DNA of 56,496 nucleotides, counting the filler, from Basidioascus undulatus (Eukaryota), in NCBI GenBank assembly GCA_000826855.1. It is 4 parts of 4 records of this genome, joined end to end, with 100 filler letters (N's around TTAATTAATTAA, not from the genome) between each part and the next. Parts side by side here need not be neighbours in the genome. Positions count along the whole stretch, not along the records: positions 36,320 to 46,361 come from JTLS01001185.1; 3 more parts are not named here. One strand, given 5' to 3'. The position numbers and the translations under genes were made by a program. Shown here piece after piece: positions 42,460 to 46,461 of this stretch (positions are counted from its first letter, which is position 1; every line of letters begins with the position of its first letter). The notes beneath the pieces were generated by a model. The model saw only the letters and a program-made list of their open reading frames with translations. It did not search any database and was not told the DNA's origin.

Positions 42460-43913
42460 ATGGAAGCCGCCGCAGCCAACTCCTCTTGTCCGGCCGACCA
42501 CATCCTCGCCCCCAACAAGCTCTCCGCCGCCGCCGAGTGCGATGCCCGCCTAACCGGCATCCGGCTCACGTCCAACGGCGGCGATATCAAGGACGTCGCA
42601 TGGCTCGAGCCTACCAGTACGAACGCCTCCGCTAAGGAGATTGGGAGCAAGTACAACCGAGACGGTTACGTCTATGTGAAGGGCCTGTTGCCGGTGGACG
42701 TCGTGAGGAAGATGCGGAGGAAGTGAGCCGCTCTCTTTCCTGCTCCGCGTAGCTTGAAGGATGGGAAGGCTGAACTTGCTGAACTTGAATTACCAACCAG
42801 ATACTTTGAGTTTGTCGCTTCCTCGGGCTTGCTCAAGGAGGGTACAGACCCCGTCGAAGGCATCTATTGCGGCGCTGCCCCGGACGAGTACGCTGGGCCG
42901 GCCACGGCCGCGACGGCTCACGGCGAATCGAACGCAGGCCAGTTCATGAAGCTCGCAACCGAGGCGTACTGCTCGGACTTTTACGAGGAGTTCCAGAACA
43001 CGCCTGGTGAGCAATGCGCCGCTCTTTCTTCTTGTTAGACTCTGGTAGATCAGATGGCTAACTCTATGCGGGATGGGTGCAATAGAGCTGTTTGAGTTCG
43101 CAAAGCGGTTGACGGGCTGGGACAAGGTGCACCTGCTCAAGCGCCAGCTGCTGCGCACAAACGTTCCCGGTGCTGAAGCTACCGGCGTCCACTGTACGCT
43201 CTTTTCCAATTTCCATTATCCCGCCGTCGCTCACTAATCCCTCCTCGCTTCCTCAGACGACCAGATCTTCCTCCGCGCCGGCCCGCCCACAGCCCTCACG
43301 GCCTGGGTTCCCATCGGCCGTGTTACTGCGGAAGGTGGCGGGCTTATCTACCTCGAGCGCTCGCATGAGCTCGGCAAGCAGATTGAGGACGAATTCCAGC
43401 GTCGGGCCGTGGGTTTCACGCAGGAGCAGCGGCTGAGCGCGTACAATGCGAACATGATGCGCGGTGGGATCTTGGCGAGCGATGCGGGAGGGTTCGCGAA
43501 GATGCATGGACGGAGGTGGTTGATTGCCGACTATGAGGTGTGTTTGAGGGACTGGCAAAGCGCGTGGACGGGCGCTGACTCTCGGCTCTTTCACCTCTTC
43601 GTCATAGGACGGCGATGTTGTCTTCCACAAGTGCATCAATTCTTGGTTCTGTGCAGAGCGGTGACCTTCAATTTACATCAATTATTCTCTTTTCTCTGCA
43701 GCCCATTCATGATCCACGCCTCGGCCGTCAACCAATCGCCTGAGGGCCGGATCCGGCTCTCAACCGACCTTCGCTTTGTGCACCCGGACCTGCCGTTCGA
43801 CACTCGGTGCGTTTCCTGCTCTCCCGTACCTTCTTCCGTCCCAAGGCGCTGACCAGATCTGGTTGATGCCGAACAGGTGGATGAACAGTTGGTCTGCAGG
43901 TGACGGCCTCTGA
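42460..43913 (+). CDS. Phytanoyl-CoA dioxygenase (PhyH) family 2OG-Fe(II) enzyme, multi-exon
   Basis: YNRDGYVYVKGLL, ATGVH|YDQIFLRAGPPTALTAWVPIG (HxD), GGGLIYLE, GDVVFH, MIHAS..RIRLSTDLRF. Confidence 0.92.
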
Positions 43914-44410: not shown

Positions 44411-44655
44411 TCACCAGGTGCACCCCGCCGGCGAGCTTGGCATCTGCGACCGTCTGCGTCGGGTCCGTGAGCTCGCGGTTGAACAGGTGGTCGTCAGCAC
44501 GTAGAGTCGGTCGCGTGTCGGGGCGGAAGCTGCATGCGGATAAAGACAACTCTCAGAAAGAGGAAGCATGAACAGAAAGCAAGACGAAACACACGCCTCG
44601 ATGTAGTTGCGCAGGTCGGTGACGTTGCGCGTTATGTTGACCCTCGCGAGCATTC
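44411..44655 (-). pseudogene. Orphan UBX-domain fragment (Shp1/p47-like), frameshifted
   Basis: RMLARVNITRNVTDLRNYIEA|...YVLTTT/FNRELTDPTQTVADAKLAGGV resembles the Shp1 UBX domain; frame break within TTT-FNREL. Confidence 0.55.
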
Positions 44656-45079
44656 TGAAGGAGATCGCGTAAGGAGCTTGCGGACAGTGAAAGGACGCCG
44701 ACGAGGGGACCGAGATGACGAGGACAAGGACCTGGACAAGGACGACGCCGACTACGACGACAAAGCTTACTATGAGGATGACGCCAACAAGGAGGAGGTC
44801 GAGGACTCAGAGGACGCGGGCGAGGCGCGGCTGACCAGCGACGCGCGTAAGTCGAGCGTTTGAATGTGCATGCGAGCGCTTGAAGGATGATCACACGCGA
44901 GCGTCTGAATGCCTTCGCATGCGTTTGTAAGGTGAGACACGTGCGAGAGCTGGCACATGCCCGGCCCGGCTTGTGCGCACTTCCTCGAGTAAGAATTGAT
45001 CGACCTGCGATCCTACACAAACGTCATAGATGCCCAAAAAGAATAAACGAGAAGAAAGGAAAACATCGCTAGATCTGCT

Positions 45080-46105
45080 TCAGCCGCCTAAAGACGAGCA
45101 CGCCGCATCAGTCACTGTCGAGGTACTGATGCCAACGTTACTTACTTTGAGCGAGGCACATGGGGGTCCCAGGCCAGATGTCGTTGCAGGTGACAAAGGA
45201 GTTGAGCTCCTGGATCTTGGCGACGCTGACGCCTTGGACAGCGGAGATGCTAGCACAGTCGTCGCCTGTGCATGTTCAGAAACTAAGAGCCCTCCAGCTT
45301 CGGGCGAGTTGAGAAGAAGGAGTTTGGGACGGACCAGCCTTGGAGGTGTACGACCAGGTGCAGGCTGATCCTGATCGCGACGGGTGAGCGTTCGGGTACA
45401 AGCTCTCTTAGAGGAGACGCACCCTTTCCCAGACAGAGAGGAGTCCCCTCCCAGATGTCGTTACAAGTGACAAACGAGTTGTACTCCTGGATTTTGGCCA
45501 CCGTGACGCGGTGGGCGCTGGCGATGCTGTCCCAGGTGTCACCTGTACGTGAACAAGTCTATGAGCCCATGGAGGAAATCCTGTAAGGTCATAGATATTT
45601 AACCGATGACGTACCGCGCTTGGAGTTGTACCAGTTCGTGCACGCGCCAGTAGAGGGAGTGCTCGGGCTGCTCGGGGTGTTTACAGTCTCGGTGCCTATC
45701 ACGATGCATGAGCTCGACCGCCTTGCTTCAGAGTAAGTAGACTACATATGACGCACTCTTGGTCACGTACAGGACGGTTCCGCGCCAAATGTTACTGCAG
45801 TCGACGAAAGAGTTGTGTTCCTGCAGCTTGGCGACCGTCACTCCCTGGGCTGCAGCAATTTCGGCGCAGGTGGCGGCTGTAGGCGTTTGAAACTTGTGAG
45901 TGCATGTGGTTGGGTCATGGCATGTAGGAGAAGGCGGACCAGCTGTGGTTGTGTACCAATTCGTGCAAGCGTCCGCCGTCGGAGTGCTCGGGGTGGAAGG
46001 CGTGGTGGGAGTGTCAGGATTGGTGGGAGTCACACTGCCCTCCCTGTAGACATTGGGACCCGGGATGGTGTACTGCTCGATGCCATCCACTCCGGGCCAG
46101 TAGAT
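45080..46105 (-). CDS. 3' part of a secreted-type protein: AA9-LPMO-like C-terminal motif, P/T linker and three LysM modules; 5' exons absent
   Basis: IYWPGVDGIEQYTIPGPNVY, then three repeats ACT.WY/SY....GD.C..IA....V.VAK.QE.NSFV.C..IW.GT..C, each split by an intron at the same position; ends ..CLAQ|SG*. Confidence 0.85.
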
Positions 46106-46145
46106 CTGCGATGGACATACAGACCCGCTGGTCAGCTTGGCCGTC

Positions 46146-46361
46146 TGTCACGGTCTGTAAGAGCGAGGATCAGGGCTAGGGCGGGAGCGACAGGGGAAAG
46201 GGCGGGAGTGTAAAAATAATGTGACAAGGTTTGACAAAATCCAGGGATTGGACGTTGTTAAGGCGTTCATGACGTAGCCCCCTTTTCAAGGGCGAGCTCT
46301 GCGAGCCCGGATGTAGGAGGTAGTTCGGGAGGGCCGATTGGGATGCGACTGGTGGAACTCG
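46146..46361 (-). mobile_element. 3' end of a chromovirus-type Ty3/Gypsy element: pol tail, PPT and a short LTR
   Basis: Minus strand: EFHQSHPNRP (chromodomain-tail-like), PPT GAAAAGGGGG (46278-46287), then about 129 bp from CGTCATG (46274) to CGTGACA (46146), a degenerate TGTCACG...CGTGACA terminal inverted pair. Confidence 0.6.
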
Positions 46362-46461
46362 NNNNNNNNNNNNNNNNNNNNNNNNNNNNNNNNNNNNNNN
46401 NNNNNTTAATTAATTAANNNNNNNNNNNNNNNNNNNNNNNNNNNNNNNNNNNNNNNNNNNN
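46362..46461. other. Assembly spacer (N + TTAATTAATTAA + N)
   Basis: Same 100-nt linker. Confidence 0.99.

Follow-up and report, generated by a model that had tools for sequence, protein, structure and literature searches.

At the end of contig G000:C207 in the Basidioascus undulatus assembly, on the minus strand, lies the 3' half of a gene in which the C-terminus of an AA9 lytic polysaccharide monooxygenase (LPMO) is followed by three fungal-type LysM modules. The window, i.e., the whole stretch of DNA that we analysed (56,496 nucleotides, four joined parts), contains seven exons of this gene, and the first of them opens with 20 residues whose origin as an AA9 C-terminus is shown by comparison with paralogues of the same genome and with a broader set of agaricomycete enzymes. 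Judging from these sequences, we regard a former AA9-LysM3 gene as real and the locus as its 3' half. What the locus is today is less certain; with about even confidence, we read it as most likely a relic cut by a Ty3/Gypsy retrotransposon whose end lies in the intron directly upstream.

The AA9 tail and its three LysM repeats

The seven minus-strand exons (46105-45940 to 45087-45080; Table 1) join to 651 nt that encode 216 amino acids and a stop codon, and this frame of 216 codons has no stop, no frameshift and canonical splice sites throughout. Its six introns are all GT-AG introns of 52 to 72 nt in phase 1 and sit at equivalent sites across the three LysM repeats, i.e., at the same two places per repeat. 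The exon model and the Pfam profile PF01476 thereby bear out what the initial annotation had described, namely a first visible exon that opens with the 20 residues quoted there, a P/T-rich linker and three fungal-type LysM repeats with matching intron positions. One exon runs without a break from the AA9 tail through the linker into the start of LysM1 (its first strand), and the fusion is therefore not an artefact of prediction. In run X3, one 383-nt contig with a depth of 3.8 spans 44966-45527 and skips the last three of the six introns exactly as modelled. This run is labelled "DNA?" and has intron-skipping contigs that are absent from both DNA runs, so that we read it as RNA. The LysM half at the 3' end is transcribed and spliced, as seen on this one low-depth contig; positions 45580-46211 have no cover in run X3 and are not counted as evidence either way.

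Table 1. Features of the AA9-LysM locus and of the sequence upstream of it (positions along the window)
Feature	Position	Strand	Remark
Spacer joining contigs (N runs around a 12-nt linker)	46362..46461	.	another contig beyond
Ty3/Gypsy Pol, last 24 codons, chromodomain-bearing	46289..46361	-	23 of 24 identical to L027; contig ends
Pol stop codon and polypurine tract	46274..46288	-	between Pol end and LTR
Shortened 3' LTR	46146..46273	-	128 bp versus 346 bp in L027; both ends align, middle and terminal T missing
Leftover host intron, 40 nt	46106..46145	-	AG acceptor; CTGAC, which we take to be branch-point-like by its consensus
AA9 C-terminal tail, 20 codons	46046..46105	-	start of first visible exon; phase-0 acceptor before it
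P/T-rich linker and first strand of LysM1 (Cys1)	45940..46045	-	remainder of first visible exon
LysM1 body exon	45757..45876	-	Ala-Ala in place of Gly-Asp loop; Tyr in place of Cys4
Linker and first strand of LysM2	45615..45695	-	exon
LysM2 body exon	45423..45542	-	Cys2 position is Trp; 45423-45527 under spliced contig
LysM3 first strand, 36-nt exon	45335..45370	-	both flanking junctions spliced in run X3
LysM3 body exon	45146..45265	-	all four cysteines present
Final coding exon and stop codon	45080..45087	-	exon model, spliced contig
3' untranslated region, to limit of spliced contig	44966..45079	-	run X3 contig

The identity of the 20-residue tail, which the initial annotation had assigned to AA9, is carried mainly by the genome's own genes. 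When a tail profile built from five paralogues of a divergent AA9 subfamily (described below) was scanned against 1884 segments of the window, the first exon matched at E 4.5e-5 with 20.0 bits versus 7.0 for the next segment (in the C213 row of this profile, the final junction is one base off and the last three residues are wrong). A phase-0 intron before Ile that matches the acceptor at 46105 is common to three of the five subfamily members and is also found in C1890 and C2325. The closest tail is that of C2217, identical at 10 of 11 residues around the DGIE..YTIPGP motif, and overall the tail is as close to the paralogue tails as these are among themselves. Independently, a tail-only profile of 77 agaricomycete AA9s ranks the first exon top in the window (E 0.021; 11.5 bits versus 6.4), with a score that is within the range of true paralogue tails of the genome and was reached by none of 3000 shuffled first exons. 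These 77 tails, 73 of which carry Y.[IV]PGP, came from 116 agaricomycete AA9s, the other 39 having given no tail and been dropped.

Could the tail nevertheless resemble AA9 by chance or belong to another domain such as CE4, the usual partner of this LysM subtype? The family-profile check proposed in the initial annotation succeeded for the LysM (CBM50) modules, three of three by PF01476, but not for AA9, given that PF03443 has no match to the first exon at E up to 1; this miss is to be expected of an exon that carries just the final 20 residues of the domain, close to where the profile itself stops. A profile built on 11 other AA9 pieces of this genome placed the tail at a domain E of 1.2 (3325 segments) and the full-length profile of the 116 agaricomycete AA9s at E 6.2, neither of them significant, and in the PDB the tail region (26 residues) matched only residues 205-221 of NcLPMO9D (PMO-2; 5tkf and 4eir), weakly at E 0.89 and 1.1. 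These misses and weak scores are what such an explanation has in its favour. It has to contend, however, with the subfamily profile, the near-identity to C2217, the intron common to three subfamily members and the independent 77-tail profile with its shuffles, and also with the Y/W..PGP-type tail pattern, which has only three matches among the hit proteins, all of them AA9 ends. Moreover, the C-terminal CE4 segment before the linker, as compared by eye in CE4-LysM proteins and in the genome's own C2670 and C21, has no likeness to the tail. We therefore consider this reading, on sequence grounds, already largely refuted and very improbable.

Scored with PF01476, each of the LysM body exons clears the cut-off of the profile (E 4.8e-6, 3.4e-8 and 4.7e-7). 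Fungal-type LysMs are described, in the accessible text of a review, as having four cysteines that pair as Cys1:Cys4 and Cys2:Cys3 (PMC4392113). This set is complete in LysM3 only, as LysM1 is without Cys4 (Tyr) and LysM2 without Cys2 (Trp), and the Gly-Asp loop of LysM1 is replaced by Ala-Ala. In a census of 117 repeats of the same subtype, taken from 44 of the best 150 proteins of a profile search, Cys2 is a cysteine in 106 of 113 repeats and Cys4 in 103 of 115. By these frequencies, changes at two of the six Cys2/Cys4 sites of the gene at 46105-45080 have a chance of roughly 0.1 and are only suggestive as a sign of decay. The branches between the repeats carry 21 synonymous and 30 non-synonymous changes versus about 26 and 91 sites, respectively; the repeats diverged under purifying selection overall, which tells of past selection and says little on the present. 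Other LysM genes of this genome (L048 on C2670, L051 on C21, L050 on C435, L049 on C336, L052 on C643 and L053 on C1729) have LysMs of a different subtype. By eye from motifs, two of them are CE4-like with about three LysMs, one is GH18-like with five or more, and the rest are LysM-only. The three-LysM gene on C2670 was considered as a paralogue of the AA9-LysM3 architecture and rejected as being CE4-like instead.

The upstream retrotransposon and the search for the catalytic half

The initial annotation had noticed neither the retrotransposon remnant upstream of the gene nor the contig end at 46361. Positions 46146-46361 are the 3' end of a Ty3/Gypsy element that lies 40 bases upstream of the first visible exon, inside the preceding intron and in the same sense as the AA9-LysM gene. 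The part at 46194-46361 recurs on three other contigs. One copy, L027, has a 524-codon frame with rve, H2C2, SH3_Tf2-1 and Chromo domains followed by the polypurine tract and LTR, and thus presents chromovirus features, i.e., an integrase followed by a chromodomain, the polypurine tract and a TG...CA LTR with which the LTR ends in the window align. The likeness of the window copy to these Tf2-like chromodomain elements comprises its last 24 Pol codons, polypurine tract and LTR ends, but L027 has a full LTR, whereas that of the window copy is internally deleted and the contig ends inside the element. Over its internal 89 nt, the window copy is 95.5-96.6% identical to L027 and L028 (3-4% divergence from the nearest copies). 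One unique contig each of runs X1 and X2 (44874-46314) contains the junction of element and gene, which is therefore real and no assembly slip, with the reservation that the assembly may have been made from these same two runs. No twin of the shortened LTR was found in the assembly, and patterns of target site plus LTR (60 matches, 11 inspected by eye and 30 scanned) revealed no 5' junction or target-site duplication. Between the LTR and LysM3 there is no in-frame ATG, so a transcript started in the LTR would yield no LysM protein. The Ty3/Gypsy family as a whole (L027, L028, L029, L067, L073, L086-L088, L090 and L147) has several LTR subtypes and a conserved pol end with a summed contig depth of about 40-50 times single-copy, and many contigs stop 70-180 nt into one of its LTRs.

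The catalytic His-brace exons are not in the window, as the initial annotation had stated: a full-length AA9 profile run in six frames gave nothing better than E 2.3. Searches of the assembly by PF03443, protein queries and motif patterns yielded 28 AA9-like loci without any orphan AA9 front half among them; inspected by eye in six frames, 27 have front and tail on one contig, and one is 5'-truncated with its own tail. A first-exon pattern matched all five subfamily members exactly, including two that had not been used in its design. Its six one-mismatch matches are not AA9, and pattern matches near contig ends on C446, C2396 and C2547 were dismissed as chance. Other front-half queries missed one of the five known members, which limits their sensitivity. 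The assembly comprises 2992 contigs and 32.1 Mb versus 34.3-34.6 Mb of run contigs, and since it is this fragmented and PF03443 misses four of the five subfamily genes, a sixth front half that has diverged further could have escaped detection or assembly. Searches for homologues were negative: the first two exons gave 890 candidates but none at E 0.001, and the three LysM exons gave 140 candidates, again none, which is weak evidence in both cases. An Atlas search with the first two exons returned LysM clusters only, one with a paralogue exon returned nothing of use, and a metagenome scan for the tail motif gave two matches, one of them next to an AA9 gene whose motif contains a stop and neither of them with a LysM. 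A metagenome contig, L159, carries at 2501-2532 an AA9 gene with an in-frame stop in the tail motif and no LysM nearby.

The initial annotation had suggested looking for AA9 exons on other contigs or in paralogues, and this did uncover five related intact paralogues but no orphan upstream half. The five genes, C213 (L101), C2217 (L110), C2240 (L096), C2492 (L111) and C2545 (L020), form a divergent AA9 subfamily that is largely missed by standard profile search in this genome: a PF03443 search recovered one of the five, and the rest were obtained by protein searches with non-tail exons. All five are complete and share the tail motif of the locus; their C-terminus is a short extension that is basic, His-containing or S/A/P-rich, and in none of them was a LysM seen. 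The C2240 model has 20 GT-AG exons and 295 amino acids, matches AA9 at E 4.7e-30 and contains Gln-x-Tyr as well as both copper-site histidines, with His1 following a signal peptide. It was from this subfamily that the AA9-LysM fusion arose. At the site of the usual second-sphere His, which follows the HE-I/L-I motif, C2240 and C213 align with a Gln, and a short basic C-terminal tail with a His pair is found in four of the members. Altogether, there are at least 28 AA9-like loci in 32 Mb, many with long S/A/T-rich extensions. On C836 (L016:1-1300), a second AA9 gene is 5'-truncated and contains an in-frame stop; about 600 nt in front of it is an LTR end that belongs to the retrotransposon family of the LysM locus, and relics of this sort thus occur in the genome. 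This truncated gene adjoins an intact tandem paralogue with 68% nucleotide identity.

Relic, intact gene or LysM-only protein

The initial annotation had proposed a full gene encoding an AA9-LysM3 enzyme. The physical fusion of an AA9 tail to LysM1 stands, whereas a full gene today is put in doubt by the element in the intron, the lack of a catalytic half and the cysteine losses. In the course of events that we favour, at about even confidence, a member of the divergent, intron-rich AA9 subfamily gained three tandem fungal-type LysMs behind a P/T-rich linker, a step shown by tail identity, the common intron and the one-exon fusion. A Ty3/Gypsy element, whose end is seen 40 nt from the acceptor, then went, presumably in this order, into the intron that precedes the last catalytic exon, in the sense of the gene. 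The catalytic exons would thereafter have been lost or separated from the rest, so that a relic with weak transcription remains, in which LysM1 and LysM2 may be starting to drift. This reading is favoured by the lack of an orphan front half and of an LTR twin or 5' junction, by the cysteine losses, by the second truncated AA9 behind a same-family LTR on C836 and by the missing in-frame ATG. Weighing against it are the 216 open codons, canonical splice sites, spliced 3' transcript and overall purifying selection, together with a fragmented assembly, searches that miss members and cysteine changes that are only suggestive. Under neutral substitution alone, frame and splice sites would survive with probabilities of 0.61, 0.37, 0.22 and 0.10 at 1, 2, 3 and 5% divergence, respectively; these values are lower with indels, and part of the element's 3-4% divergence may predate its insertion.

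Several of these observations would also suit an intact gene, with catalytic exons beyond the element, the element being spliced out and a secreted AA9-LysM3 protein of about 480 residues made at low level, which we regard as a tentative, clearly less probable reading. The open frame with its canonical splice sites and the spliced 3' transcript speak for it, as do the fragmented assembly, smaller at 32.1 Mb than the 34.3-34.6 Mb of run contigs, and the imperfect sensitivity of the front-half searches. Moreover, the LTR lacks its middle, which in L027 contains a TATA-like stretch, and an LTR of this kind may disturb transcription little. Yet neither family nor protein nor pattern searches found a front half, although a unique piece of roughly 2 kb should usually assemble, host introns here measure about 50-100 nt, and LysM1 and LysM2 have lost cysteines. 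If intact, the gene would be transcribed through an intron that contains a retrotransposon, and it would encode a LysM-bearing LPMO from a hitherto undescribed AA9 subfamily with genes of roughly 20 exons; this enzyme would be directed at walls rich in chitin, those of the fungus itself or of other fungi. The open and spliced 3' half, in the face of an undetected catalytic half, might also belong to a lectin-like LysM protein in which another signal-peptide exon, located past the element, is joined by splicing to 46105 and the AA9 tail serves as no more than a vestigial spacer of 20 residues, with a product that would mask or protect wall chitin like LysM-only proteins. Many proteins with the same LysM subtype have no other Pfam domain, and the genome has LysM-only genes, but no such first exon was seen, and the tail is still so close to the paralogue tails that either a recent loss or continued catalytic constraint would be needed; we consider this explanation improbable. 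The transposon-cut relic hence remains our preferred reading.

Relation to known proteins and possible function

The view of the initial annotation that this architecture is not a standard one agrees with our searches of proteins and literature, which found no AA9+LysM protein. We compared a profile that combines AA9 C-terminus, tail and LysM with 1.84 billion representatives, and none of its best 150 matches, all scanned locally and 90 of the 150 by Pfam, combines AA9 with LysM; two of them have an AA9 C-terminus, both without LysM. A three-LysM orthologue should rank high in this search, while an AA9 with one unrelated LysM could fall below the best 150. Likewise, PF01476 is present in none of 120 listed AA9 homologues (one subfamily only). 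In the literature we found no AA9-LysM or AA9-CBM50 fusion, bearing in mind that CAZy or the supplements of papers may list one. The accessible text of two articles names CBM1 and, rarely, CBM18 with X280 as modules of AA9 and does not mention LysM or CBM50 (PMC10154629, PMC8615602); the parts available of a fungal LysM review do not mention AA9 or GH61 (PMC4392113), nor is there an AA9-CBM50 in the available portions of two further papers (PMC7551824, PMC5683368). The partners that we observe for this LysM subtype, whose named carriers include Serendipita indica and Marasmiellus scandens, are CE4, GH16, M36 or none, with AA9 absent. Taken together with the intron-rich genes, these carriers point to a basidiomycete as the probable owner of the locus. 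CE4-LysMn and LysM-only proteins of basidiomycetes, e.g., of S. indica, have the same four-cysteine LysM subtype in tandem with S/T/P linkers, and the S. indica genome paper, as far as its accessible text goes, reports LysM together with CE4, M36, WSC and GH88 only (PMC3192844).

Three AA9 proteins invite comparison. MoPMO9A (MoAa91) of Magnaporthe oryzae, a member of the AA9-DUF/X280-chitin-binding cluster, resembles the locus in having a chitin-binding module after AA9, according to the available parts of two papers (PMC9974505; PMC10154629). Its module is a CBM18 (chitin-binding type 1) behind a six-cysteine domain, and such proteins are described there from ascomycete plant pathogens, whereas our locus has three LysMs (CBM50) after a plain P/T linker, comes from a probable basidiomycete and is in hand only as a 3' half. 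Cel1 of Cryptococcus neoformans is a basidiomycete AA9 needed at the fungus's own wall for which, in the accessible text of its paper, no substrate was found among common polysaccharides; unlike for the locus described here, LysM is not mentioned in that text (PMC10166503). NcLPMO9D, the only PDB match to the tail (E about 1), is a single-domain protein of 223 residues as opposed to the LysM fusion.

If the protein was made as a whole, it would, like the paralogues, have a signal peptide and a His brace, and its LysMs would bind GlcNAc polymers, as the consulted part of the LysM review suggests (PMC4392113). The initial annotation had concluded from the LysMs that the enzyme would be aimed at fungal walls rather than at cellulose, but this does not follow: MoPMO9A, in which AA9 comes with a chitin-binding module, is reported to act on the mixed-linkage glucan of cereals and to show no activity on cellulose, and its proposed place of attachment is the wall of the fungus that makes it (PMC9974505). 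Since MoPMO9A thus pairs AA9 with a chitin-binding module and yet cuts a plant glucan, a fungal-wall substrate is, by this analogy, one option and not a consequence of the LysMs. Among possible functions, we lean slightly toward a wall-tethered LPMO in which, by analogy, the LysMs would hold on to own-wall chitin while the copper domain nicks nearby glucan of the own wall or of a host. An attack on other fungi seems a good deal less likely to us, and chitin itself as the substrate would be rather unlikely.

Even as a relic, the locus shows at least one fusion of AA9 with LysM, and with it a second way in which an AA9 came to be tethered to chitin. A whole gene would be a LysM counterpart of the CBM18-bearing AA9s that was reached independently in a basidiomycete, and it would allow a direct test of what such modules do, i.e., whether they direct AA9s to fungal walls or serve as anchors while another substrate is cut. 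A relic would be an evolutionary footnote and a reminder that contig-end fragments beside retrotransposons are not to be read as whole enzymes.

Downstream of the LysM gene, 44444-44903 is an exact two-copy repeat with double depth in runs X1 and X2 whose ends also close contigs C2484 and C648. The assembly join across the repeat is ambiguous, so that genes to the left of 44444 need not adjoin the LysM gene in the genome. Within the repeat, a short minus-strand ORF (about 60 codons), spliced and with high coverage, seems to be UBX-like. Further left, at 42461-43913 on the plus strand, lies a multi-exon gene that, by its motifs, presumably encodes a member of the phytanoyl-CoA dioxygenase family.
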